From Planctomycetota bacterium (GTDB lineage Bacteria > Planctomycetota > UBA1135 > GCA-002686595), in contig CANKOY010000017.1 in the NCBI GenBank assembly GCA_947484275.1, positions 1 through 64,000 on the forward strand: a stretch of 64,000 nt of DNA, given 5' to 3'. Positions 7,268 to 64,000 of the stretch are shown piece by piece; position 1 is the first letter of the stretch, and each line of letters opens with the position of its first letter. The position numbers were made by a program, and so were the translations under genes. The notes under the pieces were generated by a model that had not been told where the DNA came from, ran no database searches, and saw nothing but the letters and a program-made list of their open reading frames with translations.

Positions 7268-7474
7268 ACGGTGGATGTCTCGTGGATCGACGCTGTCGCG
7301 CGCGTGCGAGTTCGCCGAGCGCGCGTCATACGTCGATGACCCGAAGGGAATTCAGCCCAGAACGGGCAGCGAGCCTACGCAACCGCTGGGCAGGGGGCCA
7401 GCGTTCCCTTGCCGTGCTTGTGGTCGCAGGTGCGCAGGCTAGGATCACCGCCCTCGCCACCGGCAAGACCACGC

Positions 7475-8266
7475 ATGGAATCAAAAGACACTCCGCTTCA
7501 ATTGCTCACTGGCCGCACCGGCATCGTTTTCGGTGTGGCGAACAAGCGCTCGCTGGCCTGGGCCTGCACCAAGTCGCTGTCCCAGTCCGGCATGCGGTTG
7601 GCTCTGACCTACGCGAGCGAGCGCATGGAGCGAACGGTGCGCGAGCTCGCCGCGGATCTGCCGGGCGCGCTCGTGCTGCCCTGCGACGTGACCAAGTCGG
7701 AGGAAGTCGAGGCGGTGTTCGCCAAGCTGAAGGCCGAATTCGGTTTCCTCGACACGATCGTCCATGCCATTGCCTACGCGAAGCGCGAGGAACTCGAAGG
7801 CGATTTCTATCACACGTCGAAGGCCGGCTACATGATCGCCCACGAGGTGTCGTGCTACTCGCTGACCGAGATCGCGCGCTGCGCACTGCCGTTGATGGAG
7901 AATCGCCAGGGTTCGATCGTGACGCTGAGCTATATCGGCGGCGAGCGCGTGGTGAAGAACTACAACGTGATGGGCATCGCCAAAGCAGCTCTCGAAGCCA
8001 GCGTGCGCTACTTGGCACACGACCTTGGACCGCGGGGGATTCGCGTCAACGCGATTAGCGCGGGGCCCGTGCGCACGCTGTCCGCCTCGGGCGTCTCCGG
8101 TTTCAGCGAGGTGCTCGACCACATCGCCACCAACGCGCCCCTGCGACGCAACATTACCGCCGAGGAAGTCGGCGACGCCTGTCTGTTCCTCGCCAGCAAT
8201 TTGTCGCGCGGAATCACCGGCTCCACGATCTACGTGGACGCTGGATACAACATTATGGGCGTCTGA
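7475..8266 (+). CDS. fabI: Enoyl-[acyl-carrier-protein] reductase (NADH), FabI.
   Basis: GIVFGVANKRSLAW N-terminus. Catalytic Y-x6-K context (SYIGGERVVKNYNVMGIAKAALE). C-terminal ITGSTIYVDAGYNIMG typical of FabI. ATG at 7475. Confidence 0.9.
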   Translation: MESKDTPLQLLTGRTGIVFGVANKRSLAWACTKSLSQSGMRLALTYASERMERTVRELAADLPGALVLPCDVTKSEEVEAVFAKLKAEFGFLDTIVHAIAYAKREELEGDFYHTSKAGYMIAHEVSCYSLTEIARCALPLMENRQGSIVTLSYIGGERVVKNYNVMGIAKAALEASVRYLAHDLGPRGIRVNAISAGPVRTLSASGVSGFSEVLDHIATNAPLRRNITAEEVGDACLFLASNLSRGITGSTIYVDAGYNIMGV

Positions 8267-9241: not shown

Positions 9242-11323
9242 TCAGAAAGCCATGCCTACAGTAAAGTGCAGCACTGCGCGACTCTCGCCAGTGTCTGGAT
9301 CAGGATTGATGCCGTAGTCCAGGCGAATCGGGCCGATCGGCAAAACGTAGCGCAGGCCAGCGCCATAGGCCGAGCGGAAGTCTTCGGTGTCGAAGAACTC
9401 GCTGGCCTTGAGCTGCACGTTGCCGGTGTCGACGAACAGGGCGCAGTCAAGATTGCCTGTCAGCTTTTGGCGCAACTCGAGCGAGAAGACATGGAAGGTC
9501 TCGCCTCCAAGATGATTGCCGAAAACATCCGTCGGACCCAGGCGGTCCTCACGGAAGGAGCGCACGGTGTTCTCACCGCCGTTGAAGAAGCGCTCCTGCA
9601 GCGGAATCGAATCAGAGGAGCCGATCGGCGTGATCGAACCGGCGCGCCATGACAGGGCCAGGACGCCACCGCTCCACAACGGGCTGTACGTCGAATGGCC
9701 GAGCCGAAGACGAACGAAACCCAATTCAGAGCCGATGGTCGAGTCGGCGAATTCCAGAGTGACACGCGTGACGGATCCACTCGACGGCGCAAACACGGAA
9801 TCACGGGTGTCGTACACCGGCGTGAGTGAAATCGAGCTGATCTCCACTGCGTCGATCAACGCCTGCACGGCTGGGCCGACGAGGGTCACGCCCGTGACCG
9901 ACGTCGAGCGAAACGCGTAGCCCAGGGTCGCCGAAAGCCGCCGGGTGAACCGGCGGGAAAGATTCCAGCCGACGCCGGTCTCGCGACTGGTGAACGAGGG
10001 TTCTTCGCGGCGGTTGGCGAACAGGCTGGTGGTGGAGCGCACGTCGCTGCCGAAGAAGCGCGGATTGATCACACTCAGTCGACCGCTCTGTGCCAGCTCG
10101 GAAAGCGTGGTCTCCAGTTCCACCGAGCGACCTGTGCCGAAGAGGTTGTTATGCCGCCCACCAAGTCCAATCCGGAAGCGCTCGTAGGATCCGTAGCCGG
10201 GTTCGACGAACAGCTCAGCCCAGGGCGCTTCGCTGACTTCTACAACCAAAGCGCGTTCCGCCCCGGCACCGGATTCGAGGCTCACGCTGACGCCGGAGAA
10301 CAGGCCGCTCTGGTACAGGGCACGAAAACTCTCGCGCTCCTTCTCGGAGTTGTAGAAGTCCCCCGGGGAGAATTTGACCAGCGCCAAGATCGTTGACGAG
10401 CGCGTGCGCTCCGCACCGCGGATTTCGATCGAGGAAATGCTGACGCGCTGGCCGGCGTCGACTTCGAACACAACCGCCGTTCCTCCGTCATCGCGGCCCT
10501 CGATCGCCTGCACGGCAGCTCGCGCTTCCGGATACCCCTGGGAGCCGAGCGACTCTTCCAGGCGCGCGCGAATCTCGCCCGCCAAGAGCGGCGAGTAGGC
10601 CCTTTGCACATAGGACTCTGCGACGCGGTTCAGGGCGACCAGTGTGTGCTCGGGCGCGCCGCGAAGATCCACCTGCGTCAACTTGGAGCGCACCCCTTCG
10701 CGGACTTCGATCACGACGCGCGCGTGGGTCCTCTCCGCGTCGAGTGTGGCGCGCGGCTGCGCGACGCGAACATCCAGGAATCCGTTCCTGTAGTAGTAAT
10801 CCTCCAGGTCGCCCGCGGCACTCTCGAGTGCGGACTCGACCCACCACGGTGGACCGACGCCGGGAAGCTTCAACTCGGCCTCCGTGTCGGCCTCCCCAAT
10901 GAGAAGACGCGGTACCTCCGGAAAGAGATTTTCTAGAGTCTTGCGATTGAGCGAAGTCGCGCCCTCGATGCGAATCGACGCGAGCGCCACGCGCGGGCCC
11001 TCCACCACGTTGAAAATCGCGCGTTCGACCTGCTCGGGATCGCGCGCGAACTCGTACGCCACGCGCGCGGAGGGGAAGCCTTGACTTGCGTAGAAGCGTT
11101 CGATGGCGAAGGCGCCGTCGTCCACCGCGGAGCGCGCCCATTTGTCCGAGATGCCATCTCCGACCTCCGCGGCTACGAGCTCGCGCAAGCGCTGCGCGGA
11201 GAAGGTGCTTGCGCCCTCGATCCGCAGAGGCGGCAGCCCGCCCCCACTTCCCACGGTGCTCGCGCAGGCGCAAAGGCACAGCCCCGCAGGCAAGAGAAGG
11301 AACTGAAGGCCGCGCACGTTCAC
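9242..11323 (-). CDS. tamA: Omp85-family outer-membrane protein (TamA/BamA-like) with POTRA domains and a C-terminal beta-barrel.
   Basis: 693 aa. Signal peptide with a lipobox-like CLCACAS. POTRA-like repeats. C-terminal barrel ending ...HFTVGMAF (terminal aromatic). ATGA overlap with tamB. Confidence 0.85.
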   Translation of the reverse strand: MNVRGLQFLLLPAGLCLCACASTVGSGGGLPPLRIEGASTFSAQRLRELVAAEVGDGISDKWARSAVDDGAFAIERFYASQGFPSARVAYEFARDPEQVERAIFNVVEGPRVALASIRIEGATSLNRKTLENLFPEVPRLLIGEADTEAELKLPGVGPPWWVESALESAAGDLEDYYYRNGFLDVRVAQPRATLDAERTHARVVIEVREGVRSKLTQVDLRGAPEHTLVALNRVAESYVQRAYSPLLAGEIRARLEESLGSQGYPEARAAVQAIEGRDDGGTAVVFEVDAGQRVSISSIEIRGAERTRSSTILALVKFSPGDFYNSEKERESFRALYQSGLFSGVSVSLESGAGAERALVVEVSEAPWAELFVEPGYGSYERFRIGLGGRHNNLFGTGRSVELETTLSELAQSGRLSVINPRFFGSDVRSTTSLFANRREEPSFTSRETGVGWNLSRRFTRRLSATLGYAFRSTSVTGVTLVGPAVQALIDAVEISSISLTPVYDTRDSVFAPSSGSVTRVTLEFADSTIGSELGFVRLRLGHSTYSPLWSGGVLALSWRAGSITPIGSSDSIPLQERFFNGGENTVRSFREDRLGPTDVFGNHLGGETFHVFSLELRQKLTGNLDCALFVDTGNVQLKASEFFDTEDFRSAYGAGLRYVLPIGPIRLDYGINPDPDTGESRAVLHFTVGMAF

Positions 11324-15580: not shown

Positions 15581-17002
15581 TCAGCGAGCGTAGCTGTCGA
15601 TCACACGTTCGATCGCGCGCTCGCACACGGCGCAAAAGCGCGTGGGGTTGCGTGTGAACATGATGCAATCGACCTCGGGCCGAAAAAGGCCCTTGGCCTG
15701 GTAGCTCGCCCCTTCAAAGGCTCCGACCGCGTTGGCGTAACGCTCCCGAGCCAGGAGCGGCGCCGTGGAGCCTTTGACTTCGCGGAACAGGCCTTCCATC
15801 GCTTCCTCGCTGGCCTTGGCCTCGAGCATCTGCGCGCGACGGGCCTGGTAGGCCAGGTCGATTTCGTCGAAGTGTTGCTGACCCCAGGGCGTCGGCAGCG
15901 GTGTGTCCTTGGCCACAAGGTCCTTCCACTTCAAGTTCGCGGGATCGAGCAGGGCGGTGACGTTCGGCTCCCAGGGTTCGACGCCGGGCTTGATGAACTC
16001 TTCGTAGGCAACCTGGGAGGAGTAGTACTCATCCGCGAGCCCGGCGAAGGAATGGCCGAACTCGTGGACGAAGACGTACGCAGCGGGCTCGGTGTCGGCG
16101 GCGACGGTGGCCCACAGGTTGTAGATGCCGCCGCCGCCGTACTTGCGCTCGTTGAACAGCAGAATCAGCGTGTCGTAGGGCGCCTGGGCACAGGTCTGTC
16201 GCAGTGCGAAGTCGTCCATGGTCAGGACGTAGCGATCGGATCCAAACGCGTTGTAGGAAAGGCCCAGGGCGCTCTTGCGCGCCACTTCCTTGCGCGGATT
16301 CGCGATGCCCGCTTCCTTCGAGGGCACGAACAGCGCGCGCACGTTGAAGTCGGACTTGCGGCGCTGGAAGGGCTCGGTCGTGAACATGACCTCCACCAGA
16401 CGGCGCGTGTCGGCGACGAATTTGTCGCGCTGCTCCCGCGTGTAGCCGTCTGAGACGATCAAGAGGTCGACGTGGGTTGCATTGTCGCCATGGACGAAGA
16501 TCGGCACGGTCTCACCAAGTTGTTCCGGATCACGTCGCCACGGTCGGTCCACGGCAAGGTCGACGTCCCGCGTGGCTAGATCCTGAAAACTCCCGTCGTC
16601 TGCGCGCTTCTGGATCGCGAGCCGGAATGGCAGACGCGGCTCGGGCAGGCGCACAGTCTCCTCGAACGCCTTGAGGAACTCCTTGGCCTCGGCCGTGGTC
16701 TCCCACTCGCCGAAAATGCTCGCGAAACCGCGCGAGTACAAGAGCCGCTGACTGGCGAGGTCGCGCATTTCCACGCGGTACTTGCCGAAGTCGTTGGGGT
16801 CGATCAATTGCGTGCGCGAGCCGGGCCAGTCGCCGGAGATGACCACATGTTCGAAGCCGATTTCCCCTGACCCGCCCTTGCGGTTGGCGTGGTTGTAGCC
16901 GACCTGCATGCACTTCCCGGTGAAGGCCTGATCGAAGTCGGGCCTCGCCAGGGTAGAGCAACCGCACAACGCGAGAGTCAAGAGCAGCAAGAGCTTGTCC
17001 AT
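15581..17002 (-). CDS. M64-family (IgA-peptidase-like) zinc metallopeptidase lipoprotein.
   Basis: HEFGHSFAGLADEY is an HExxH plus downstream acidic motif. Lipoprotein signal MDKLLLLLTLALCGCS. The start was placed at the Met at 17002, which begins the signal peptide. Confidence 0.8.
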   Translation of the reverse strand: MDKLLLLLTLALCGCSTLARPDFDQAFTGKCMQVGYNHANRKGGSGEIGFEHVVISGDWPGSRTQLIDPNDFGKYRVEMRDLASQRLLYSRGFASIFGEWETTAEAKEFLKAFEETVRLPEPRLPFRLAIQKRADDGSFQDLATRDVDLAVDRPWRRDPEQLGETVPIFVHGDNATHVDLLIVSDGYTREQRDKFVADTRRLVEVMFTTEPFQRRKSDFNVRALFVPSKEAGIANPRKEVARKSALGLSYNAFGSDRYVLTMDDFALRQTCAQAPYDTLILLFNERKYGGGGIYNLWATVAADTEPAAYVFVHEFGHSFAGLADEYYSSQVAYEEFIKPGVEPWEPNVTALLDPANLKWKDLVAKDTPLPTPWGQQHFDEIDLAYQARRAQMLEAKASEEAMEGLFREVKGSTAPLLARERYANAVGAFEGASYQAKGLFRPEVDCIMFTRNPTRFCAVCERAIERVIDSYAR

Positions 17003-17008
17003 GGCCAC

Positions 17009-17064
17009 GACCATAGCGGATGGGTGAAGGAACGGCACAGTTCCTTCACCCATCCGCTATGGTC
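17009..17064. promoter_or_regulatory. Perfect 25 bp inverted repeat with a 5 nt spacer, in the 70 bp divergent intergenic region between the M64 peptidase and epimerase genes. Candidate operator site.
   Basis: gaccatagcggatgggtgaaggaac GGCAC agttccttcacccatccgctatggtc. The two arms are exact reverse complements of each other. The palindrome covers nearly the whole gap between the two start codons. Confidence 0.5.
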
Positions 17065-18647: not shown

Positions 18648-18722
18648 GCACGGCCCGACGAGCGTGACGACGCCACGGCGAAGATCGCGAAGCCGCAGCA
18701 GGGCTCTTTTTCAATGGGCTGC
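18551..18722. repeat. Copy A of an approximately 175 bp palindromic intergenic element (MITE/REP-like).
   Basis: About 90% identical to 39839..40022 in the same orientation. The terminal arms are inverted repeats (cagcccgttgaaaaa...tttttcaatgggctg). The internal IR is gcggccttcctggccgc. Confidence 0.7.
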
Positions 18723-18728
18723 TAGGAT
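18720..18728 (+). promoter_or_regulatory. Extended -10-like element TGcTAGGAT, 11 nt upstream of the UDG start codon (near-leaderless).
   Basis: TG-n-TAGGAT matches the extended -10 TGnTATAAT at 5 of 6 hexamer positions. The same motif recurs upstream of two other start codons in this window. Confidence 0.35.
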
Positions 18729-18738
18729 CTGAAACTCC

Positions 18739-19452
18739 ATGGCGCGCCGAAGCACGAAGTCCAACGGCCGAGCTTCAGCCTGGACGACCCTCGAGCGCGA
18801 AATCGTCGGCTGCCGCGCCTGCCCGCGCTTGGTGCGCTGGCGCGAGGAAATCTCCTGCGTCAAACGCCGCGCCCACGCTGAGAAGGACTACTGGGGCCTG
18901 CCGGTGCCTTCCTTCGGGCCCCAGGACGCGCGCATCCTGCTGCTGGGTCTCGCCCCGGGGGCCCACGGGGCCAACCGCACGGGGCGGCCCTTCACGGGCG
19001 ACGGCGCCGGTCCCTTCCTTTATGGAGCGCTGCACCGGGCCGGGCTCGCCACGGGACCAGAATCGGTGTCACGGGACGACGGGCTCGAGCTGCGGGGCGC
19101 GCGGATCGCCAATGCGGTGCGCTGCGTCCCCCCGGGGAACAAACCGAGCCCGAGCGAGAGTCTGCGCTGCGCGCCATTCTTGGATCGCGAGTTGGAGCTG
19201 CTCGGGGAACTGCGCGTGATCCTCTGCCTGGGCGAAATTTCATGGCGCGCGGCCCACGGAGCCCTGGCGCGCCGAACCGACGGTCCAGCGCTGCGGCGAA
19301 CGCGCTTTGGCCACGGGGCCGTAGCCAAGATCGGCGCGCTGCACGTGCTTGGCTCTTACCACCCGAGCCAACTCAACACGCGCACAGGACGCCTGACCGC
19401 CGCGATGTTCGACGCCGTGATCGCGCGCGCGGTCGCCCTGGCGCGCGCGTAG
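18739..19452 (+). CDS. Uracil-DNA glycosylase, family 4/5 (thermostable UDG-type, Fe-S).
   Basis: GLAPGAHGANRTGRPFTGD motif. Cys residues (CRACPRL ... C) in the N-terminus are consistent with family-4/5 UDGs. A C-terminal HPS motif is present. Confidence 0.8.
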   Translation: MARRSTKSNGRASAWTTLEREIVGCRACPRLVRWREEISCVKRRAHAEKDYWGLPVPSFGPQDARILLLGLAPGAHGANRTGRPFTGDGAGPFLYGALHRAGLATGPESVSRDDGLELRGARIANAVRCVPPGNKPSPSESLRCAPFLDRELELLGELRVILCLGEISWRAAHGALARRTDGPALRRTRFGHGAVAKIGALHVLGSYHPSQLNTRTGRLTAAMFDAVIARAVALARA

Positions 19453-20478: not shown

Positions 20479-20557
20479 AAGCGCGGCGGGTCGTCCTGAT
20501 CGCAGGGACACGCGCGAGTCGGCACGGGGAGCATTCAATCGGGGCGCCCCCTTCGGC

Positions 20558-20563
20558 TAGAAT
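20558..20563 (+). promoter_or_regulatory. TAGAAT -10-like hexamer flanked by a short inverted repeat (cttcgg/ccgaag), upstream of the efflux operon.
   Basis: ggcTAGAATcc is embedded in ccccttcgg...ccgaagctgg, about 65 nt upstream of the membrane-fusion-protein start. Confidence 0.25.
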
Positions 20564-31839: not shown

Positions 31840-33903
31840 TCAGGGCGCGATTTGCGCTTCGAGCGCGTTGGTCAACGTCGCGTTGTTCGGCGCGGCGAAT
31901 CCCTGGTCGCGGCCCCAGAACTGGGTGCGCACTGTGTTGCCAACCACCTGCAAGCCCGGATCGCCCGTGCCGCCGGTGATGAAGGCGTTCAAGTCGAGCG
32001 TGTACACCCCGCTGCAGTCATTGCCCGTGGGATTGCCGCCCGAATTGAGCGCCGACGAGCGGCGAACAGGGCTGGCCACGCACAGCGTGCCTCCGGAGAA
32101 CGGCGCCGCGGCGCGACCGGTCAGGCTGTACATCAAGAGCCCCGGCTTGTTGTTGCGCACGTTCGTGCCGCGGACCGTGAAGCCGCTGCCCGCGCTGACG
32201 GACGGATTGCTGCCGATGAAACCGATCGACGGCGTGCAGCCCAGTGAGTTCACCTTCGGCGTGCAGTACACAACCGGCGGCGTGGTGCAGATCGACGCAG
32301 TGGATGTGTGGAACGCGGTGGGTGCGTCCTCGGGGCTCGACCAGACGATTCCGTTGCTGGCCGTGGTGCCGGTCACGTAGTACTGGAAGGTCGTGTTGCA
32401 GGCCACCGCCGGAAAATTCGCGTCGTAGAGTCCCCCGCCGAGCGCCACCAGGGGCACGCTGATCCAGTTGCCGGTCGTGCGATACCAAAGGCGCTCGGTG
32501 CCAGCGGTCAAAAGGCCCGCCTGGGACTGGTTGATCTGCACGCGCAGGCTGTGTCCCAGGTTGGAAACGGCCGCGGGTTGACCGTTGGGGAACGAAAAGG
32601 TGAGTTGGTGCGCGCCGACCCACCACACGAACAGGCCGCTCTCCAAGTCGGAGCCGGTGACCACGCCACCGGGGTGGAACGGATAGACGTTCCAAAGCCC
32701 GTTGTAGGTCGGGTTGTCGTCCGTGGTGCGCGTGTCGAACCAGGCGATTTCGGGAGGATTGTTCGGATTCTGCGCCAGGTCGTAGACGCGCACTCCGCTG
32801 GTGTACGCGGCCTGGAACAGCTTTGTCCCCAGGGTGTACTCGTTGTGCGGAATGGCCGAATTGCCATTGTTGAAGGAGCCGAGGAACACGGGCGCCGATG
32901 TGCCCAGACCCGAGATGTCAAAGACGTGGTTGATCGTCGGACCGCCGAGGTTGGGCACGTAGAGTTCGTCGTTGAGGTACAGGCGCGACTTGTCGGCGGA
33001 CAGCGTGCACTGATGGCCGTACTGACCGTTCGGCCAGGTGATGCGCGGCGTCACCGCTGTGATGTTGGCCTTGTTGGTTACATCGAGGATATCGACGCCG
33101 GTGTTCGCCCAACCGCCGTTATCGCCGCCGCAGGCGAAGGCGATCTCTTTGCCCGCGAGCGGACCGCTGGTGTAGTTCACCAGGGTGACTTCGTGTGTGT
33201 ACCGAGAGGACCAGGACGCCACGTACAACGGCGCCGCGGGGTTGGGATTCAGGTTGTAGATCCGCAGACCGTTCGAACCTCCGCCGGAGCGATAGAGGTA
33301 TCCGGTTTGAGTGTTGATCTCCATCGAGTGTGTCGCCGCAGGCGACGGGCCCGAGGTAATCGTGTTCACCAGGGTGACGACGCCACTGTCGATGTTCGCC
33401 AGATCGATCACCTGGATGCCGCCGCCGCCCTCGCTCACTGCGTAGGCGTAGTGCGAGAACACGCGCACGTCGCGCCACAGACTGTCTGGTCCCGCGATGT
33501 AGCCGACGTTCACGGTTTGCCCCGGCGCCGTGATCTCAGCGAACCCGGTGCCGCCGTAGAGCCCCATCAATGCGTAGCGCCGACCCGAGGCGGAAACGTA
33601 GCCCCAGCCGGAATTGCCGTTCTGCTGGTTCGCGCCCCAGGTGTTCAGGGGCAGCCACGACAGGAGCTTGACGTTGAATGAACTGAACGGCGACGAACTG
33701 TAGGAACCGGAACTGCCGGGGCCGGCGGGCACGAATCCAGGCAAAGGCGCGCCCAGCGGGCCCAGGGGGCTGTGGTACCCGGGCCCCGTGTAGGGCGCGC
33801 GGCGATCAAGCACCTTTCCGTCGCCATCGTGGGCGCCAACTAGGGCGCCGAGGGTCATGGCAGCTGCCAAGGCGAGGAACAGGTTGCGGGGTGAACCGAT
33901 CAT
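31840..33903 (-). CDS. Secreted LVIVD-repeat beta-propeller protein carrying a approximately 150 aa Cys-rich C-terminal domain of unrecognised type.
   Basis: Signal peptide ([24 protein letters not shown]). LVIVD-like repeats ([39 protein letters not shown]). The C-terminal 150 aa are approximately 65% identical to the C-terminus of the 46741..48726 protein. Confidence 0.75.
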
Positions 33904-34276
33904 GGAAGGGCTCCTGCGGTGCGAATCGGGTAGGGGCAATCGCGAGTATGTCGCCCCTGGATCCTACACCCTGGGACGGTTCGTCAATGATTCGTGAAGA
34001 CTCTGTCAGCCGGGCCATTCGGTGCAGGAGCGCAAATCCCAGTCAGGCAGGGCTCCGCCTGTTGGATGTCGAGCCCCTCGCGGACTCGATCCCCTGGGAC
34101 GCTGGTCTCGGTCGGGTGCCGGAGGAAAGAGGGCCCGCAGCTCCACTAGGGAGTACTCGCTGCGTCTGGACGAAAGGACGGCCCTGGGTTCATGAAGCCC
34201 TTCGGCGCCTGTGGAATCGATCCCGCCCGCAGGCCCGGGTGGATTTGCTGCGGAGCCCCCGGTAGCGTGCGGCCCA

Positions 34277-34988: not shown

Positions 34989-37076
34989 CTAGAAACTGCT
35001 GGTCACCTCGAGTTCGCGGGCCTCCGCCAGCAAGCGCGCCGCTTCTCGCACGGCGTCCTGGGTGCCCGACAGGGCGATAACGTCGCCGCTGCGCAGGACC
35101 TCCTCGTCCTCGGGCTGCACCAGAACCACCCCTTCGCGGTCGATGGCCACGACGCAGGCCCCTGTGCGGGCCTGAAGGTCGAGGGCATCGAGACTGCGTC
35201 CCACGGCCAACGACTGTGAGGAGAGCCCGAGCATGGAGAGGTGTCCGATCCCGGGCAGCATTTGTTCCAGGTCCTCGATGCTCGGCGTCGGGATTGTCGC
35301 CCCCGTGCGCGTCAGAGCAGCGGCGATGATCTGGGCGCCCGCCTGCACGTGCCCTTCGAGTTCGTTGGCGCGTCGCCAGAAGGAAAACGCCAGGGCCCCG
35401 AGCACCAGGGACAACACGATCAGTCCACCCAGCGGCGGCACGAATGGTTGGGTGATCGCCTGGACCATCAACCCCGCCACGAGCACGATGCCGCACTCCA
35501 GTGCAATGGCCAGTGCGCGCCGGGGCGTGTAGGCCGGATCCACTCGGGTCGCTTCGGGCAGGGGCAGCGCGGACTCCGCGATCAGGCCGCCGATACGCGC
35601 GCCCATCCGCAACAATCCCAGGCCGAATGGCAGGGAAGCCAGTGTTGCGCAGCCGACGATCAGACCGCGCACGAGATCGGGACGATCGCCGATCTGCCGC
35701 GAGAGCAGTCCGCCCAATTCCTCGTGCCAGATGGCAGCGTTCGCGATGACTCCGGCGAGCAGCAGCACGTCGGCCGCAAGCCAGGCGAACATGCGCCACA
35801 GGCGGCGCCGCGGCAGTGGATTCTGTTTGCCCGCGCGCCAACCCTCGAGCCACGTGGCGTACAGCGAAACAAAGGTCCGCATGCGCTCTGGCAAATTGCG
35901 CTCGAAGGCCTCGGCGATCCACGGAGAGGCCCGCACGAGCCAGGGGTTGAGCATGGCCGCCAGCACAGCGACCGCCACGGCGACTGGGTAGAGGAACTCG
36001 CCGACTGCACCGCTTTGCACGCCGACGGCAGCGATGATGAATGAGAATTCGCCGATCTGAGCCAGGGTCAGACCCGCGCGCACGGATTCGTGAATGCCAT
36101 GTCCCGTGAGGAAGGCCCCGAGAAACACAGCGCCGGCCCGGCCCACGAGAACGACGGCTAGCAAGGCAAACACGGCGCCGAGGTTCTCAACCACCAGCGC
36201 GGGATCGAGCAGCATTCCGACCGAGACGAAAAACACCGCAGCGAACAGATCGCGAAGCGGAGTGATCAGAGTGCCGATCCGGCCCCCGGCGCCGGACTCT
36301 GCTACGAGCATGCCCGCCAAGAACGCGCCCAGGGCCACGGAATATCCGGCCGCGTGGGCGAGCCAGGAGAATGCAAAGCACAGACCGACGGAGGCAACCA
36401 CGTTGACTTCCGGGCTGGCCACGCGCGCCACGGCGCGCACCATGGGCGGCACGACGTACATCCCCACGGCCACCAGTGCCGCGAGGAAACCCGATAGGCG
36501 CGCCACGGTCCAGCTCAGTTCGCTGGCGGACACGTCGCTGCCGGAGGCCACCGCAGTCAGCACCGCCAGTAGCAGCACGACGACGAGGTCCTCGATGACC
36601 ATCACGCCAAACACGAGTTCGCGGAATTCTGGCCTGGACTTCGAGTCGCGCAGGGCTCGCTCCACCAGCATCGAGCTGGAGATCACCAAGGTCGCGGCCG
36701 CGAAAATGGATTCCAGCGGCGTCCAGCCAAAGGCCTGCCCCACCAGAAATCCCGCCGCGAACAAAAGCGGCACTGAGACGGCGACCATGGCCCCCGCAGT
36801 GGGCAAGAGGCGCGTGAACCGTCTCAGGGTGAAACCCAGGCCGATGGAGAACATCAGCAGCGTGACGCCAAGCTCCGAGAGCACGCGCACGTTTTCCACG
36901 TTCGCGTTGAAAATCAGGGTCACATGGGGCCCCACCAGTACTCCAGCCAGCAGGTAGCCCAGGACCAGGGGCTGACGCAGTCGGTGACAGAGGACGGCGG
37001 TCAAGGCCGCGGTGCAACACACCAGCGCCAAGTCCTCCATGGGGTTGTGGGTGCCCATTCCCGCGCACGATAGCAC
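34989..37076 (-). CDS. Cation:proton antiporter, CPA2 family (KefB/YbaL-like), with a C-terminal TrkA-C (RCK_C) domain.
   Basis: About 12 TM helices with the Na_H_Exchanger signature. The C-terminal ...VVAIDREGVVLVQPEDEEVLRSGDVIALSGTQDAV... is an RCK_C-like domain. Confidence 0.85.
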   Translation of the reverse strand: MLSCAGMGTHNPMEDLALVCCTAALTAVLCHRLRQPLVLGYLLAGVLVGPHVTLIFNANVENVRVLSELGVTLLMFSIGLGFTLRRFTRLLPTAGAMVAVSVPLLFAAGFLVGQAFGWTPLESIFAAATLVISSSMLVERALRDSKSRPEFRELVFGVMVIEDLVVVLLLAVLTAVASGSDVSASELSWTVARLSGFLAALVAVGMYVVPPMVRAVARVASPEVNVVASVGLCFAFSWLAHAAGYSVALGAFLAGMLVAESGAGGRIGTLITPLRDLFAAVFFVSVGMLLDPALVVENLGAVFALLAVVLVGRAGAVFLGAFLTGHGIHESVRAGLTLAQIGEFSFIIAAVGVQSGAVGEFLYPVAVAVAVLAAMLNPWLVRASPWIAEAFERNLPERMRTFVSLYATWLEGWRAGKQNPLPRRRLWRMFAWLAADVLLLAGVIANAAIWHEELGGLLSRQIGDRPDLVRGLIVGCATLASLPFGLGLLRMGARIGGLIAESALPLPEATRVDPAYTPRRALAIALECGIVLVAGLMVQAITQPFVPPLGGLIVLSLVLGALAFSFWRRANELEGHVQAGAQIIAAALTRTGATIPTPSIEDLEQMLPGIGHLSMLGLSSQSLAVGRSLDALDLQARTGACVVAIDREGVVLVQPEDEEVLRSGDVIALSGTQDAVREAARLLAEARELEVTSSF

Positions 37077-43259: not shown

Positions 43260-44378
43260 TTATTGCTCTCCCCGCCGCGCGGCGAGCGCCCGCCTCCAGC
43301 CTTGCACGACTGGATCGTAGCGCTCGGGCCACCAGCGTCCGGAGATCGCTCCCGCCTCCGCTGACAGCCCCGTACTGGGCTGATCCGGGGAGCCGGGCGC
43401 GCCGGGCGCCGCAACCGTCGATCGATTCGAGCCGACCATTGTGCGGTCCGGCGGCCCGTTGGCCAGCGCAGACTTTGTCGCGTCCATTCCCGCGGAGTCC
43501 TCGGGCCCGCCGCCGAGGCCCGGGGAGGCGCCCGAAGCGCGAACAGGCGCTGGCGAGGCTCCCTTTTCAGCGCTGGCCAATTCCGTGACCGGCAGCGCGC
43601 GTTCGCGGTCGATTTCCTGCTGCAGCCGGTCGATCGCTTCGCGCGCGGCGGACCTAGAAGCGGCGCGCTCGCGCTCGCGGCCCAGCTCGACCCCGGCAAG
43701 ATCGAGATCCGCGAGCCGTCGCGCGCGGGCCTGGGGATCCACCGCAGCCGCCGCGCGCTGCTCGCGGGCCCTGGAGAGCGCGGCCCGTGCCGAGGATTGA
43801 GGGGGTGTCCGCCGGTCGCCGCCGGCCGCGGCAAGTTCGCTTTCCTGCCCCAGATGCGCGCTGCTCACGCGCCCGGGCGCCTCCAGGGCCAAGGCTGCGA
43901 GCGACAAACCTACGGCAGGTGGCGCGAGCCAGATCCAGCCCGGGGCGGGCTGAGCCCGTGCAAGGCTCACTTTGGTGAGCGCCGACAATTCGCGCTGCTC
44001 CAGTGAGCGTGCCAGGGCCCCCACTTCACCGCGACACAGCGCCTCGTACACGCTTGCCAGGGCTCCACCGCGCCCCAAGCGCCCGTCGATTTGCTGCGCC
44101 AACTCGAGATCAGTTCGCTTTGCGCGCTCGACCCACCACGTGGCGGCGGCCGCTGCGCCAGACAACGCGGCGCATGCGACCAACCCGGCGAGTCGGTCCC
44201 TTATCGAAGTGTGAGCATCGAACGAGAGGATCGCGGCCGCGGCGCCGAGAGCCCCGGCGCACAGCCCGAGGGCAGCGGACTCAAGGGCCGTGAAAGCTCT
44301 GCGCCGGCGGCGAACTTCGGCAACGAATTCGACGATCGAATTCGGTGCATCGCGGCGGTCGTGCCCCGTTGGCATCAA
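43260..44378 (-). CDS. Hypothetical membrane protein with an Ala/Arg/Glu-rich coiled-coil-like region.
   Basis: Two to three N-terminal hydrophobic helices followed by low-complexity A/R/E-rich sequence. Overlaps the upstream gene by 4 nt. No known domain. Confidence 0.4.
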   Translation of the reverse strand: MMPTGHDRRDAPNSIVEFVAEVRRRRRAFTALESAALGLCAGALGAAAAILSFDAHTSIRDRLAGLVACAALSGAAAAATWWVERAKRTDLELAQQIDGRLGRGGALASVYEALCRGEVGALARSLEQRELSALTKVSLARAQPAPGWIWLAPPAVGLSLAALALEAPGRVSSAHLGQESELAAAGGDRRTPPQSSARAALSRAREQRAAAAVDPQARARRLADLDLAGVELGRERERAASRSAAREAIDRLQQEIDRERALPVTELASAEKGASPAPVRASGASPGLGGGPEDSAGMDATKSALANGPPDRTMVGSNRSTVAAPGAPGSPDQPSTGLSAEAGAISGRWWPERYDPVVQGWRRALAARRGEQ

Positions 44379-45298
44379 CGACCGTCCTTGGGCGGCGGCG
44401 GGCCTTCGTCCCCGGGCGCGAGGACGCGGCGCGCGTCGCGGGCAGCCGGCTCAATTTTGGGCAGGCCGGCGGCCAGGGCAGCGGGAATTTCCGTGAGCCT
44501 CCCGCGCGAGAAAAATAGCGCCACCTGCTCGCCGCGCTGGGGAATCAGCCACGCGTTCGGCAGCCAGATGGTCTGCTCGACGCATTCGGGCAGGGCCGAC
44601 GTGATCAGGGTGTACGCCTCGTTGAAGTAGGCGACGTTGATCAGATTCTGGTACACGTCCGCGGCGAATTGCTCCCGCGGATCCTTGTCTTTCTTGCGCG
44701 GATCCGGCGGCAGCATCTTCGATCCCAGATACACCCAGCGATGGCGCTGCATGCTCGCACCCGTGAGCAAGTTCCGCAGCAAGTCCTCGACGCGATAAAA
44801 GAACAGCTCCTCGCCCTGGCGCCAGGCGAGGTTGAGTTCGAATCCGTCGCCCTCGGGCACGGTCACTTCATAGGGCGTGACGCCTGCGCGCATTTCCGCT
44901 TCGCTGGGCCGCGGCTCGCGCGCCTGCCACTTCGCATTGCGCCCCGGAGCGACGCCGAGGGCGAGCAGAGCGGTGTTGAGCACACTGGGCCGAATGTGCG
45001 TGCTGAACATGCTCTCGTGGGTCGCGCCCGCGGAGCCCACGAGCAGGTACTCCAGCAATTCGTCGCGCACCTCGATGCGCACCGGAATCCACATCGCATT
45101 TGATTTCGGATCGAGATGCACGTCCTGGGCGCGCATGGCTTCCACCAGGGCTGCGAGGGCAGGATCCTCAGGCCCAACCTGGGCCGGCGACTGCGGGGTC
45201 GCGGTGTGGGAGCGCCAGGCCAGAGCCGTGGCCGCAAGCAACGCGATCAGCGCAAACGCGCTCGCGAACTTCGTTAGGCGGGATGAGGTTTGCGACAT
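44375..45298 (-). CDS. Hypothetical secreted protein. Start taken at the Met that begins the signal peptide.
   Basis: MSQTSSRLTKFASAFALIALLAATALA is a signal peptide. No recognisable domain. It is the first gene of a four-gene minus-strand unit ending in MIPS and the M3 peptidase. Confidence 0.4.
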   Translation of the reverse strand: MSQTSSRLTKFASAFALIALLAATALAWRSHTATPQSPAQVGPEDPALAALVEAMRAQDVHLDPKSNAMWIPVRIEVRDELLEYLLVGSAGATHESMFSTHIRPSVLNTALLALGVAPGRNAKWQAREPRPSEAEMRAGVTPYEVTVPEGDGFELNLAWRQGEELFFYRVEDLLRNLLTGASMQRHRWVYLGSKMLPPDPRKKDKDPREQFAADVYQNLINVAYFNEAYTLITSALPECVEQTIWLPNAWLIPQRGEQVALFFSRGRLTEIPAALAAGLPKIEPAARDARRVLAPGDEGPPPPKDGR

Positions 45299-45431
45299 GA
45301 CAGGAGTGTAGTGCGGCGTGGAGGGCGTCCAAAGTCGGCGATCTGCCGCAGCCGCAAACGCCCCGTGTCCAGGGCGGTTCATTCGCGGCGGATTCCGGGC
45401 GTGTGCACAGGGGAAGCAGCGCGGCTCGCGC

Positions 45432-45440
45432 TGCTAGACT
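45432..45440 (+). promoter_or_regulatory. Extended -10-like element TGcTAGACT, 6 nt upstream of the GTG start of the SGNH hydrolase gene (apparently leaderless).
   Basis: Same TGcTAG[GA][AC]T motif as upstream of the UDG and 58876 genes. The spacing puts the predicted transcription start at the start codon. Confidence 0.3.
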
Positions 45441-45446
45441 GGCCCG

Positions 45447-46661
45447 GTGACGGGCCCGCGGACTCTTTTCTTACGCATCCTCTTGGTGCTCGCACTGGTC
45501 GCGGCGGTGGATGTGATCCTGAGCCTTACCTGGCTCTCGGAGGGCCGGGTCGGCAAGCGCCCGCTGCCGCCATTTGGCATCGAGTTCGACGAGCCGCAGT
45601 TGGCGGTGCTCGCCCGTCTGGAGGCGGGCCTAGTCAATCAGAACAGCGTAGTCGGCTTCGATCGCGATTTGGGCTGGTGCGTGCGCCCCCTTGCTGCACA
45701 CCCCACCCAGCCGATTCGAATCAATTCGCGCGGGCTGCGCGGCGAACGCGAGTACTCGGAACTTCCGCCGCCGGACAAGTTGCGCGTGGCCTGCTACGGC
45801 GATTCCTTCGCCTTCGGAGACGAAGTGGGCGACGAAGCTACCTACGAGTCGTTTCTCGAGCGCATCCAGCCCTCGGTCGAAGCCTTGAACTTCGGGGTGT
45901 CGGCCTACGGCACGGACCAGGCGCTGCTGCGCATGGAGCGCGATGGGATCCTCGGCGCGCGCGCGGTGATCGTGTCACTGCTGTTGGAGAACATCGGGCG
46001 CAATGTGAATCGCTACCGGCCGCTGTGGACCGCGCGCACGCTGTCGCCCTTGGCCAAGCCGCGCTTCGTGCTCGTGAACGATCAGCTGCAGTTGATTCCA
46101 CAGCCCTTCGCGGATGGTCGCGAGTTTGCGCAAGCCGCGCGCTCGGGCGCCGCGCTCGAAATTCTCGCCGAGCACGAGTACTGGCGCGGACGCCCTGAGT
46201 TGTGGACCGGTCGCGCGTCGTCGCTGGGAAGATTGGCCGCGGGTTGGTTCGCTTACCGCGAGCGCGACCCACAGCGTTTGTGGCTTGATCGCGACGGCGA
46301 GCCCTTTCGCGTGACCGTCGCGTTGATCGAAGCGCTCCGCGAACGGGCGCGCGCCCTGGGCGCGAAGGAGTTCCTCGTATTGCTGTTTCCGATGCGCGAG
46401 GAACTGGCGGACTATCGCGAGAGCGGCAAGGCCTACTGGAGCGCCGTGGCCGACGAATTCACTTCGCGCGGAATCGACTGCATCGATTTGGCGCCTGCCC
46501 TGGCGGCCGAAGACCTGCGCTGCGAACAGGATCCGCTGCACCCGACGCTGTTCGTCGCCGCGCACCTGTCGAGCGTCGGCAACCAGACCGTGGCCGTGGA
46601 AATCCAGCGCTGGCTGCTGGACCGCCGCCTGCTGGCCCACGAGGACGTCGAGCGTCGATAA
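45447..46661 (+). CDS. SGNH/GDSL-family hydrolase or acyltransferase with an N-terminal membrane anchor (AlgJ/AlgX/DltD-like superfamily).
   Basis: GTG start. N-terminal TM (LFLRILLVLALVAAVDVIL). ACYGDSFAFGDEV is a GDS(L) block-I motif. Later blocks are present but degenerate. Confidence 0.65.
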   Translation: MTGPRTLFLRILLVLALVAAVDVILSLTWLSEGRVGKRPLPPFGIEFDEPQLAVLARLEAGLVNQNSVVGFDRDLGWCVRPLAAHPTQPIRINSRGLRGEREYSELPPPDKLRVACYGDSFAFGDEVGDEATYESFLERIQPSVEALNFGVSAYGTDQALLRMERDGILGARAVIVSLLLENIGRNVNRYRPLWTARTLSPLAKPRFVLVNDQLQLIPQPFADGREFAQAARSGAALEILAEHEYWRGRPELWTGRASSLGRLAAGWFAYRERDPQRLWLDRDGEPFRVTVALIEALRERARALGAKEFLVLLFPMREELADYRESGKAYWSAVADEFTSRGIDCIDLAPALAAEDLRCEQDPLHPTLFVAAHLSSVGNQTVAVEIQRWLLDRRLLAHEDVERR

Positions 46662-58859: not shown

Positions 58860-58868
58860 TGCTAGGAT
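58860..58868 (+). promoter_or_regulatory. Extended -10-like element TGcTAGGAT, 8 nt upstream of the start codon (leaderless-type spacing).
   Basis: ccctgcTAGGATcgcgcccATG. Identical to the motif upstream of the UDG gene. Confidence 0.3.
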
Positions 58869-58875
58869 CGCGCCC

Positions 58876-59733
58876 ATGATGCCTTCTCATTTGCGTGCCC
58901 ACGCGCTACTCGCGCTAACCCTGGTGGCTGCCCTTTCCTCAGGCTGCACAGGACCGAGCATCGACCTCAAGCCGTGGCGGACCGAGCAACTCGCCGCAAT
59001 TCCCGCGCCAATTACGGCCGCGATTCCAATGGAAGCGCGCGCCCCGGGTGCGCTCGCGGCGAGGTTGTCGCACATCGAGCAGCTGCGCACGCAGCGGCAA
59101 GTGGAGCAGGCTAGACAGCTTGCACTGACCTTGGTTTCCGAGCACTCCAACGATCCTGCGGTGTTCACGGCCGCCTCGCGCGCGGAATCGGACGCCGTGT
59201 TCATGTTCCCCGAGAGCGACAAGCTCTCGCGCAATCACGCTGCGGCCAGTTCTCTCGACTACGCGCTCGCGGCGCAACGCCTCGGCGCGAGCACGGCCCG
59301 TGATCGCGCGCAACTGGCGTGGGCCCTGGGCACGACCACCCATCTGCAGCCAATGTTCGATCGCGCGGGGCACGCACAGCGCACGCTGGAGGCTGCCGAG
59401 GCGGCCCTGGCGCAGGATCCGCGCGAGGCAACGGCGCTCGCAACCCTGGCCGTGGTGAACCTGCGACTGCAGACGCTGCCGTGGATCGCGAAACTGATGG
59501 CCTGGAGCGCGCCCGACTCCAGTCTGGCCGATGCCGAACGCTTCGCGCGCAGCGCACAGGAAGCCGCGCCCAGTCGCGAGCATCGACAGATCCTGGCCAA
59601 GGTGCTGATCGCCCAGGACAGGCACGAAGAAGCGCGGGCGGAACTCGATGCCGCGCTCGCCGCGCCGGAGTCAAGTCCGCGCGACGCGCTGCTGGAACCC
59701 GCATTGCGCGCGCTGCGACAGTCGCTGGACTGA
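58876..59733 (+). CDS. Hypothetical lipoprotein (alpha-helical/TPR-like).
   Basis: Lipoprotein signal MMPSHLRAHALLALTLVAALSSGC. Ala-rich helical content. Confidence 0.45.
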   Translation: MMPSHLRAHALLALTLVAALSSGCTGPSIDLKPWRTEQLAAIPAPITAAIPMEARAPGALAARLSHIEQLRTQRQVEQARQLALTLVSEHSNDPAVFTAASRAESDAVFMFPESDKLSRNHAAASSLDYALAAQRLGASTARDRAQLAWALGTTTHLQPMFDRAGHAQRTLEAAEAALAQDPREATALATLAVVNLRLQTLPWIAKLMAWSAPDSSLADAERFARSAQEAAPSREHRQILAKVLIAQDRHEEARAELDAALAAPESSPRDALLEPALRALRQSLD

Positions 59734-61843: not shown

Positions 61844-62166
61844 GCTTTGAATCGCCGTGCGGGAGTGAGGTCAGAGTGTCGAGTGCAGACTGCGCTGCGC
61901 CAACGATATCAGAAACGGAATCGGATTCGCGCTGATGCGATAGGGCGCGCTGACAGGAGCAGCGGGGAGTAGCTGATGCCGGCGAGTTCGCGAGGCCGCT
62001 GGCTCGCGCACGCGCGGGCGGCCCATGGAGTCAGCTCGCCGACTGCAGGCCAGGCACGGCGCGCAGCCACTGGCGCGTGAGATGCCGGACGTAACTTGGC
62101 TATTCACGCCGCCTGTGTGAATTGCGCACTGTCCGCAGCGCCGACACCCCGGCGGAAGCCCTGCAA

Positions 62167-64000
62167 ATGACGGCTGATATACTTGCGACCATGAGCTGGC
62201 AGTTGCTTTCCGCGGATCTATCGCCCGCGGCTCTGGAGCATGCTCAACCACGGCGAGCACACTTGGGTGCATTCGTCCGGAATGGGGCTCAACTTGGGCT
62301 CTTGCTGGTCGCAATCGCCGGGCTCGAGATCGAGTCTGGGTTCGACCTGCCTACCATCTTGCCGGTGATTGGCCTGGGCTACTGCGCCCACGCGTGGCTG
62401 CCGGCTGCATGGAAGTTGCCGTTTTTCCTGCTGCTTTCGTGCCTCGGCTTTTCCCTGGTCCTCGGAGTGCAGGCCTGCGCCACGGTCTTCGCGCTTGGAC
62501 TCGCGCTGATCGGTGTCTGCCATCTGCCCCTGCGACTGGGCTGGCGCATTGCACTGCTGCTTGGAATTGGAATCGGGCTGACGCTGCTGCGCGGCGGCGC
62601 ACTTGCGCTCCCGTGGAGTCCGGCGGTACTGCCGATGCTCGGTTCGATGTTCCTGTTTCGGCTCGCGATCTACCTCTACGACGAGCACACGGGTCGCCGG
62701 CCTGCGTCGATTTGGATGCGGCTTTCCTACTTCTGCCTGCTGCCCAACGTGTGCTTCCTGCTGTTCCCGGTGATCGACTATCGGACCTATCAGCGCACGT
62801 ACTACGAGCAACCGGCCGCCGCGATCCATGCGCGGGGCCTGCGCTGGATCTTGCGCGGCGTTCTACACCTGCTCGCCTACCGAATCGTCGTCAATTACTG
62901 GAGCCTTGATTCATCCGGTGTGGTGGATCTCGCGGGGGTGATGCGCTTTGTCAGTTCGAGTTTCCTGCTCTACCTGCGCATCTCCGGCCACTTCCACTTG
63001 ATCATCGGATTCCTGCACTTGTTTGGATTCCACCTGCCGGAGACGAATCACCTCTACTGGCTGGCGACGAGTTTCAGCGACTGCTGGCGGCGCACGAACA
63101 TCTACTGGACCAACTTCATGAAGAAGCTGGTCTACTTCCCGGTGTTCATGCGCCTGCGCAAACAGGGGAACACGTTTGCCCTGGTCATCGCGACGTTGCT
63201 CGTATTCGTCGCAACCTGGCTGTTGCACGCACTGCAGTGGTTCTGGCTGCAAGGTGAGCTGCCCGTGACCACGGATGGACTCTTCTGGGGCCTAGCGGGC
63301 GGCTTCGCCCTGGCAAGCGTCCTGCGCGAGGCGCGCCGGGGCGATTCCTCCGCCCTGCAGCCCCCTGTCAACAGCTGGCGGCTGAGCGCGCGAGCTGTGC
63401 TGAAGGCGGCTATGGTGTTCATTCCCTGCGCAGTGACCTGGTCCTTCTGGTCCAGTCCATCAACCTCGGATTGGCTCGATGTACTTTCGATGTCGCGCAA
63501 CACGACGCCGATCCAAGTTGCCTCGATTGGCGGTGCAGTGGCAGCGATCTTCCTTCTCACAACGGTCGCCTCGCGTTTTCTGCTCGAGCCGAGTGCTGCG
63601 GTTGACGCCGTGCCCGGGCCAAGGGGCGCAGCATTGCAGTGGGTCGCCTGCGGATCCCTGGCGCTGCTCGGCCTGGATTCACTCTCGGCGCGAGTTGCGC
63701 CGTCCGTGCAGAGTTTTCTTGCGCCCCTGATCGCTGAACGCACGCGGACCGATCCCGACGGGAACGGGCTCTCCTACTACGACAACCTGCTGGACGATCA
63801 GCGTCATCGGCAGTGGGAGTGGGGTGAGCAAAATGAAGAAACGCGCGAGACACGGCCCTTTGTGAAGGCCGGGCTGGTGAAGGTCGGGCCGCCGCCATTC
63901 GTTCGGGAGTTTCTGCCACTCCAACGGGCTCGGTATGCCAACTCTGTCCTGGAGACGAACAGCTTTGGTATGCGAGACCGGGAATACGCGCTCGAGAAGC
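62167..64000 (+). CDS. MBOAT-family membrane-bound O-acyltransferase (DltB/AlgI-like). It is 3'-truncated by the window end, and the ORF continues beyond the TM region into a soluble domain.
   Basis: Multi-TM protein. DCWRRTNIYWTNFMKKLVYFPV matches the MBOAT WRRW(H)ISL...YVYIP region. The conserved His region is HFHLIIGFLHLFGFHLPETNH. There is no stop before position 64000. Confidence 0.8.
   Translation, partial: MTADILATMSWQLLSADLSPAALEHAQPRRAHLGAFVRNGAQLGLLLVAIAGLEIESGFDLPTILPVIGLGYCAHAWLPAAWKLPFFLLLSCLGFSLVLGVQACATVFALGLALIGVCHLPLRLGWRIALLLGIGIGLTLLRGGALALPWSPAVLPMLGSMFLFRLAIYLYDEHTGRRPASIWMRLSYFCLLPNVCFLLFPVIDYRTYQRTYYEQPAAAIHARGLRWILRGVLHLLAYRIVVNYWSLDSSGVVDLAGVMRFVSSSFLLYLRISGHFHLIIGFLHLFGFHLPETNHLYWLATSFSDCWRRTNIYWTNFMKKLVYFPVFMRLRKQGNTFALVIATLLVFVATWLLHALQWFWLQGELPVTTDGLFWGLAGGFALASVLREARRGDSSALQPPVNSWRLSARAVLKAAMVFIPCAVTWSFWSSPSTSDWLDVLSMSRNTTPIQVASIGGAVAAIFLLTTVASRFLLEPSAAVDAVPGPRGAALQWVACGSLALLGLDSLSARVAPSVQSFLAPLIAERTRTDPDGNGLSYYDNLLDDQRHRQWEWGEQNEETRETRPFVKAGLVKVGPPPFVREFLPLQRARYANSVLETNSFGMRDREYALEK

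Follow-up and report, generated by a model that had tools for sequence, protein, structure and literature searches.

Candidate TANNNT-type −10 elements close to start codons in an uncultured Planctomycetota bacterium

Three gene starts with a shared upstream motif

The window analyzed here is a 64,000-nt stretch of DNA (65% G+C) from an uncultured Planctomycetota bacterium, in which gene calling by a self-trained codon model gives 49 genes in about 28 transcription units. The subject of this work is a 9-nt motif, TGcTAG(G/A)(A/C)T, that lies a few nucleotides upstream of three of the start codons and that we read as the −10 element of promoters whose mRNAs would be leaderless or nearly so. The initial annotation of this DNA had pointed out the motif, and the positions and start codons that it gave are exact at all three sites (Table 1). 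The box is TGCTAGGAT upstream of the first and third genes and TGCTAGACT upstream of the second. Gene 1 (18739–19452) encodes a protein of the uracil-DNA glycosylase (UDG) superfamily, gene 2 (45447–46661) a membrane-anchored protein with a weak GDSL-lipase match, and gene 3 (58876–59733) a lipoprotein that has no Pfam match and carries a textbook lipoprotein signal peptide, MMPSHLRAHALLALTLVAALSSGC, at its N-terminus. The three genes are functionally unrelated to each other. Each is the first gene of its transcription unit, with genes 2 and 3 heading divergent units (gaps to the neighbours of 148 and 454 nt) and the UDG gene following a co-directional gene across a 91-nt gap.

A near-identical strain (L005; related loci are designated by L numbers) has 2 single-nucleotide differences upstream of the UDG gene and an intact box. 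Four independent Logan metagenome assemblies from two projects (L001–L004) all end at base 18675, 64 nt 5' of the UDG ATG, and downstream of this base they are identical or near-identical to the window. The shared break suggests that the DNA immediately 5' of 18675, at the 3' end of the preceding epimerase-SRPBCC fusion gene, varies between strains or contains a repeat; this gene is also truncated in L009.

Conservation and placement of the hexamer

Orthologues of the three genes were compared at 46–75% protein identity. Among 185,579 species genomes, the closest UDG orthologues all come from Planctomycetota metagenome-assembled genomes (MAGs; 69–75% identity), and the named relatives of gene 2 are likewise Planctomycetota. 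It is clear from Table 1 that a TAnnnT hexamer before the start is kept in orthologues of all three genes, with a spacer of 6–11 nt except in one case (15 nt). For UDG this coupling is seen in at least 6 lineages, and it persists where the protein N-terminus is 10 residues (30 nt) shorter, the hexamer still standing beside the first start codon. In every family the T, the A and the last T are invariant, while the middle three bases and the flanks drift. The fact that only these three positions are invariant is the signature of a sigma-70 −10 element, and it rules out that selection acts on a Shine-Dalgarno (SD) site, an operator or a stop codon. In the sigma-70 −10 elements of high-GC bacteria, A(−11) and T(−7) are the bases read by the sigma factor.

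It is also important to consider whether the start codons themselves are correctly placed. An alternative in which the promoters are real and the start codons wrong, so that the mRNAs would be leadered and translated from a true start farther downstream, gains some credit from our use of longest open reading frame (longest-ORF) starts, from three other window genes that needed start correction, and from a second group of TAnnnT boxes 21–29 nt before starts. The start codons of the three genes, all AUG or GUG, nevertheless have independent support: the N-terminal MARR of UDG is conserved among orthologues, gene 2 begins with its membrane anchor and has homologues of about 400 aa, and the signal peptide of gene 3 begins at ATG 58876. 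Moreover, the hexamer follows the first start codon at 6–11 nt even though the N-terminal length shifts by 30 nt. With this in mind, we consider misplaced starts quite improbable.

Two of the orthologous loci have peculiarities of their own. In L089 (MAG JADJQU01, 9980–10001) the gene-2 orthologue probably starts 7 codons before its annotated ATG, at an in-frame GTG that follows TAGACT by 6 nt in an arrangement identical to that of the window. The gene-3 orthologue of L087 (about 600–700) has a tandem 15-nt unit encoding (LTAAF)n inside the signal peptide.

Alignment of 28 sites gives the consensus c-TA-(G 15, T 7, C 5)-n-n-T-(c/g), i.e., TANNNT, with C just before the hexamer in 22/28 and C or G just after it in 28/28, although these flanking frequencies may come partly from the shared ancestry of orthologous sites. 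TAGGAT, TAGACT and TAGAAT are the commonest forms. The TAGGAT-type −10 consensus of the initial annotation is thus borne out as to the type of element and not as to the specific word. The recurrence of one 9-mer at two sites and of a near-identical one at the third, together with the preferred flanks, could also be taken for a transcription-factor site or other DNA-level signal (e.g., a GCTAG operator) common to three unrelated genes. This we regard as very improbable: the sequences surrounding the three sites have neither extended similarity nor dyad symmetry, the genes have no functional relation, orthologues keep the T-A-n-n-n-T skeleton and the distance to the start with no specific word, and the same skeleton precedes many unrelated genes.

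The frequency of the motif in the window is unremarkable. TGNTAGRMT occurs 3 times vs. 1.13 expected (8 of 100 shuffles reach 3) and TAGRMT 12 times vs. 18.2 expected, counted over the whole window. Since these counts are not significant against shuffles, the signal is carried only by position and orientation. The initial annotation had asked whether the motif is commoner upstream of genes than in random sequence; the raw count is within chance, but the placement at gene starts is not, as 7 of the 12 TAGRMT copies lie between genes and are oriented toward the gene that follows, where 0.48 would be expected (p = 1e-7). The same holds for the bare skeleton, with 20/104 copies of TAnnnT being intergenic and gene-oriented vs. 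46/1194 for TAnnn(A/C/G), a baseline of 4% (p = 4e-8). The extended form TGNTANNNT (TGnTAnnnT) has 6 copies in the window vs. 13.07 expected, and each of the 6 falls between −110 and +70 relative to the start of a gene on its own strand (P about 1e-7).

The dinucleotide TA is itself strongly depleted in the window (649 TA vs. 2103 AT), and among TA-starting hexamers outside the gene-oriented intergenic set T is under-represented at position 6 (84/1232, about 7%). Together with the shortage of the TGn-extended form, these depletions would fit a selective pressure that keeps spurious −10 boxes out of genes.

To describe the spacing, we pooled the window with 17 loci into a set of 282 kb of Planctomycetota sequence. 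TAnnnT is found at spacers of 5–12 nt before 24 of the 199 longest-ORF starts, vs. 2–10 for uncontaminated control patterns of the same composition (T...AT and T..A.T were left out because of their overlap with the motif itself); a spacer of 6 nt is the commonest. One further explanation has to be weighed at this point, namely chance recurrence or an artifact of TAG as an ORF-delimiting stop codon. The window count of TGNTAGRMT is within chance as given above, GTG 45447 shares its reading frame with the TAG at 45435, and the in-frame spacers 6, 9 and 12 are over-represented. Since a TAG or TAA may be the in-frame stop that delimits an ORF, we used a conditional test on hexamer position 6, which is immune to this artifact. 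Of the hexamers that begin with TA, 24/38 have T at position 6 when the spacer is 5–12 vs. 28/148 when it is 13–80 (Fisher p = 3e-7), so that the peak is a localized one. The coupling is seen in frame (15/19 vs. 10/57) and also out of frame (9/19 vs. 18/91, p = 0.015); at spacer 6, TA outnumbers in-frame TGA, which was the second stop codon counted; TAC and TAT, which are non-stop variants, occur in orthologues; and the p values for placement do not exceed 1e-7. Chance or a stop-codon artifact is thereby largely refuted, and we hold it to be extremely improbable.

Shine-Dalgarno use, predicted transcripts and other boxes

The tetramers GGAG, GAGG or AGGA occur 5' of 11/49 starts (22%) vs. a background of 14.5%, and two of these occurrences are the AGGA inside TAGGAT. 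The initial annotation was right that SD sites are lacking at the three genes, but this is not a feature specific to them, since almost no gene of the window has one; the window-wide absence thus says nothing specific about the three. Many upstream regions in the window are C/A-rich and G-poor, and clear SD sites are found at more distant Planctomycetota loci (AAAGGAG in L045/L076, and the site of L088 mentioned below).

The AGGA within TAGGAT could in principle act as a weak SD site, pairing with the anti-SD CCUCC on a leadered transcript from a promoter farther upstream. From its end to the ATG there are 8 nt in gene 3 and 11 nt in gene 1, a distance inside or close to the range of SD sites; GeneMarkS-2 places promoters and ribosome-binding sites (RBSs) at the same distance in its group C genomes; and the distant gene-3 orthologue of L088 uses GGGAGAGGAG. 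We nevertheless consider this improbable, since the TAGACT of gene 2 contains no SD core, the AGGA present at the other two sites is lost in orthologues, which swap GGA for CGA, TCC, GTC or GCA and keep the T, A and T, and SD-like tetramers are unenriched 5' of the window genes even with the two TAGGAT sites included.

Taken together, the motif positions, the enrichment and orientation at gene starts, the conservation of hexamer and start, and the lack of SD sites are direct observations, from which we infer binding by RNA polymerase, the exact transcription start site (TSS) and leaderless translation. We estimate a probability of roughly 0.8 that the three motifs are −10 elements (TANNNT, here with TGn) of sigma-70-type promoters situated 6–10 nt before the starts and producing near-leaderless mRNAs. 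RNA polymerase with the primary sigma factor would recognize TAnnnT, with TGn assisting at the sites that have it and a −35 element contributing little or nothing, and would start transcription about 7 nt past the hexamer. The mRNA would then begin at the G of GTG 45447, on or beside the A of ATG 58876, and ~3–5 nt before ATG 18739, leaving no room for an RBS, and the ribosome would load directly on the 5'-terminal AUG or GUG. The 6-nt spacer of gene 2 would correspond to the exact leaderless geometry. The leaderless reading put forward in the initial annotation is therefore supported by orthologue coupling, placement and pooled statistics, as far as sequence evidence can carry it, except that a short leader rather than none is predicted for UDG.

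Several results weigh against this interpretation and should be set beside it. The placement of the TSS comes from geometry only, and the 10-nt spacer of UDG is what leads to the predicted leader of about 3–5 nt. A terminator scan between the UDG gene and the co-directional gene upstream detected none, so read-through transcripts may also exist. An E. coli-type −35/−10 scan, run together with a search for intrinsic terminators, found nothing around the three sites, and no −35 is recognizable there; no TTGACA-like element lies 16–18 nt upstream of them, the 28 aligned sites have only a faint T-T-G tendency at 17-nt spacing, and candidate −35 elements are seen at fabI (TTGTGG) and the efflux operon (TTCAAT). 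In the window alone, TAnnnT at leaderless spacing precedes 4/49 starts vs. about 0.9 expected, which is modest and marginal. Orthologous sites are not independent, and the pooled p-values rest on roughly 11 gene families. A permissive search, in which start codons up to 150 nt away from that of the longest ORF were all accepted, gave 9/49 in the window and 37/199 overall, no better than controls; it was rejected as evidence because the control patterns did equally well, and extra candidates were kept only with a signal peptide, a Pfam alignment or orthologue support. Given this result, the candidate starts at 37058 and 62191 are identified by the motif itself. Finally, the TG prefix is kept only in L086 and L045/L076 and is absent from the UDG and gene-2 orthologues. 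The extended −10 of the initial annotation is thus correct in that TGc stands at all three sites and marks 5' ends in the window, but it is mostly not conserved; since TG is missing from most orthologous promoters, it is dispensable in this lineage, an optional enhancement rather than something that defines the element.

A wider picture can be drawn only tentatively. The lineage may run almost without SD pairing, with ~30% of transcription units leaderless and the rest carrying short, C/A-rich leaders without SD sites; coding sequence would have been cleared of TAnnnT, and above all of TGnTAnnnT, to the point where the 9-mer by itself marks gene 5' ends, and the C and C/G flanks would be a preference of the primary sigma factor. 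We consider this a possible but doubtful generalization.

Beyond the three genes, the leaderless-type layout is found at about 8/28 transcription units (Table 1). Four of the eight starts (18739, 45298, 45447 and 58876) have orthologue support and 17002 is backed by a signal peptide and a Pfam match, while for 17073, 37058 and 62191 the motif is the main evidence. The longest-ORF starts are probably wrong for five window genes (regions 7409–7475, 17002–17053, 45298–45382, 37058–37076 and 62122–62191). For fabI, the Pfam alignment and the N-terminus MESKDTPLQLLTGRTGIVFG place the real start at ATG 7475 and not at TTG 7409. The M64 peptidase lipoprotein gene (15581–17002, minus strand) was corrected to ATG 17002, as the M64_N match runs from residue 22, directly after the signal peptide, and tblastn alignments with M64 peptidase orthologues are consistent with this start. 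The gene for a YdjY-like secreted protein (44375–45298, minus strand) was corrected to ATG 45298, where its signal peptide starts. The starts of the Na+/H+ exchanger gene (Na_H_Exchanger match from residue 17 of the protein) and of the last gene are probably ATG 37058 and ATG 62191, respectively.

The initial annotation had also listed related boxes farther upstream of fabI and of the efflux operon. Both are present, and they look like ordinary leadered promoters, with the same hexamer type at a greater distance from the start; the fabI TAGGAT is a candidate promoter with a short leader (about 22 nt) and no SD site. Upstream of the efflux operon, ATTCA(T/A), a gap of 17–18 nt and TAGAAT are kept at the same distance in L007, L008 and L009 where the surrounding sequence diverges. 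The conservation of this TAGAAT with its −35-like partner shows the hexamer type acting as part of a promoter in the lineage. Two apparent leaderless sites at L007 6284 and L009 11731 (TAGAAT 9 nt before a TTG, from a crude gene caller) proved false, with the true start ~60 nt downstream; the box there is the conserved leadered efflux promoter.

A second set of gene-oriented TAnnnT boxes lies 21–29 nt before starts (7440, 33961 (−), 15514 (−), 39752 (−) and 62092) and would give leaders of about 15–22 nt without an SD site. Between the divergent starts ATG 17002 (−) and ATG 17073 (+), a perfect 25-bp inverted repeat (GACCATAGCGGATGGGTGAAGGAAC / GTTCCTTCACCCATCCGCTATGGTC, 6-nt loop) at 17009–17064 fills most of the 70-nt gap, each arm carrying cgcTATGGT facing its gene. 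A symmetric, bidirectional promoter or operator is one possible reading of this repeat. It has no second copy in the window, and the orthologous loci L006, L009 and L010 lack it. Orthologues of the epimerase gene do not keep its TATGGT box. Scanning the window for Rfam families and tRNAs gave no matches.

Table 1. Candidate −10 boxes in the window and the corresponding sites at orthologous loci (spacer, nucleotides from hexamer to start codon).
Gene	Locus	Motif	Position	Strand	Spacer	Start	Remarks
Gene 1 (UDG)	window	TGCTAGGAT (TGcTAGGAT)	18720–18728 (hexamer 18723–18728)	+	10	ATG 18739	leaderless-type layout
UDG	L006–8	TACGAT			10	ATG	
UDG	L009	TACGAT			10	ATG	
UDG	L010	TAGGAT			9	GTG	
UDG	L012, L015, L016	TATCCT			8	ATG	
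UDG	L017	TAGTCT			6	GTG	
UDG	L045	TAGGCT			11	ATG	
Gene 2	window	TGCTAGACT (TGcTAGACT)	45432–45440 (hexamer 45435–45440)	+	6	GTG 45447	leaderless-type layout
Gene 2	L089	TAGACT			6	GTG	7 codons 5' of annotated ATG, in frame
Gene 2	L090	TAGACT			6	GTG	
Gene 2	L092	TAGAAT			6	GTG	
Gene 2	L091	TATGCT			7	ATG	
Gene 3	window	TGCTAGGAT (TGcTAGGAT)	58860–58868 (hexamer 58863–58868)	+	7	ATG 58876	leaderless-type layout
Gene 3	L086 (64% identity)	TAGCAT			8	ATG	cTGg before hexamer
Gene 3	L087	TACACT			15	ATG	
Gene 3	L088 (42% identity)	no hexamer					GGGAGAGGAG SD site instead
YdjY-like, divergent from gene 2	window	TACACT	45305–45310	−	6	ATG 45298 (corrected)	leaderless-type layout; orthologues L089, L092
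YdjY-like	L089	TACACT			6	ATG	
YdjY-like	L092	TAGACT			7	ATG	
Epimerase/SRPBCC fusion	window	TATGGT	17058–17063	+	9	ATG 17073	leaderless-type candidate
M64 peptidase lipoprotein	window	TATGGT	17010–17015	−	7	ATG 17002	leaderless-type layout
Na+/H+ exchanger (34989–37058)	window	TGcTATCGT	37067–37075	−	8	ATG 37058	leaderless-type layout, candidate only
Last gene, runs past window end	window	TGaTATACT	62175–62183	+	7	ATG 62191	leaderless-type layout, candidate only
	window	TGaTATCGT	61903–61911	−	59	ATG 61843	candidate leadered promoter
Gene 31840–33939	window	TAGGAT	33961–33966	−	21	TTG 33939	candidate short-leader promoter
fabI	window	TAGGAT	7440–7445	+	29	ATG 7475	TTGTGG 7418–7423 lies 16 nt 5' of box
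MacA-like efflux operon	window	TTCAAT, 18 nt, TAGAAT	20534–20563 (TAGAAT 20558–20563)	+	66	GTG 20630	

Relation to known promoter systems

Promoters abutting start codons have been described before as “TA-led genes,” in which TANNNT lies about 12 bp 5' of the start codon, with the middle positions uninformative above 60% GC and a strong TG found mainly in low-GC Firmicutes (Zheng et al., 2011). The gene finder GeneMarkS-2 treats them as its group C, in which a Pribnow box 6–8 nt from the start serves about 25–50% of operons, mainly in Actinobacteria and Deinococcus-Thermus, and the leadered genes are described as using SD RBSs; MetaGeneMark-2 has a TANNNT promoter model built for the 60–65% GC bin. 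Leaderless genes with mapped TSSs are known from Mycobacterium tuberculosis (Cortes, 2013) and Deinococcus deserti (de Groot, 2014). For Planctomycetota, we found no TSS or promoter study in the literature beyond the composition of one genome, which hints at sparse use of SD sites and at a “leaderless and/or RPS1” signal, and a 2025 review of the phylum makes no mention of promoter, Shine-Dalgarno, leaderless, sigma factor, ribosome binding or transcription start.

If the lineage does use start-abutting TANNNT promoters, this would provide a practical rule for correcting gene starts in MAGs (five starts in the window were moved on the basis of the hexamer or of homology), guide the choice of gene-finder model toward the group C type, and offer a starting point for the design of expression elements in planctomycete genetics. 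It would also extend the high-GC leaderless pattern to a phylum outside Actinobacteria and Deinococcus-Thermus, with no new mechanism.

The likeness to group C and the TA-led genes is close. The spacers of the three window genes are 10, 6 and 7 nt vs. 6–8 nt, with the first T ~12 nt before the start, the middle three positions carry little information, the genes are the first of their operons with AUG or GUG starts in DNA of GC >60%, and the share of about 8/28 transcription units compares with 25–50% of operons. The differences are that the host is here a member of the Planctomycetota, that the layout is known from sequence rather than from mapped TSSs, and that SD sites appear almost unused even by the other genes. 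The extended −10 promoter (TGn-TATAAT) is similar in having TG one base 5' of the hexamer, as at the three sites, and no recognizable −35, but here the TG is absent from most orthologous promoters. The Streptomyces-type −10 consensus is reportedly TAG(R)(R)T, and the preference for G at the third position (15/28 aligned sites) resembles it; the phylum is unrelated, however, and here a C frequently precedes the hexamer (22/28) and a C or G follows it (28/28). The layout is thus an architecture already known, that of TANNNT leaderless genes, in a phylum for which promoters have barely been described.

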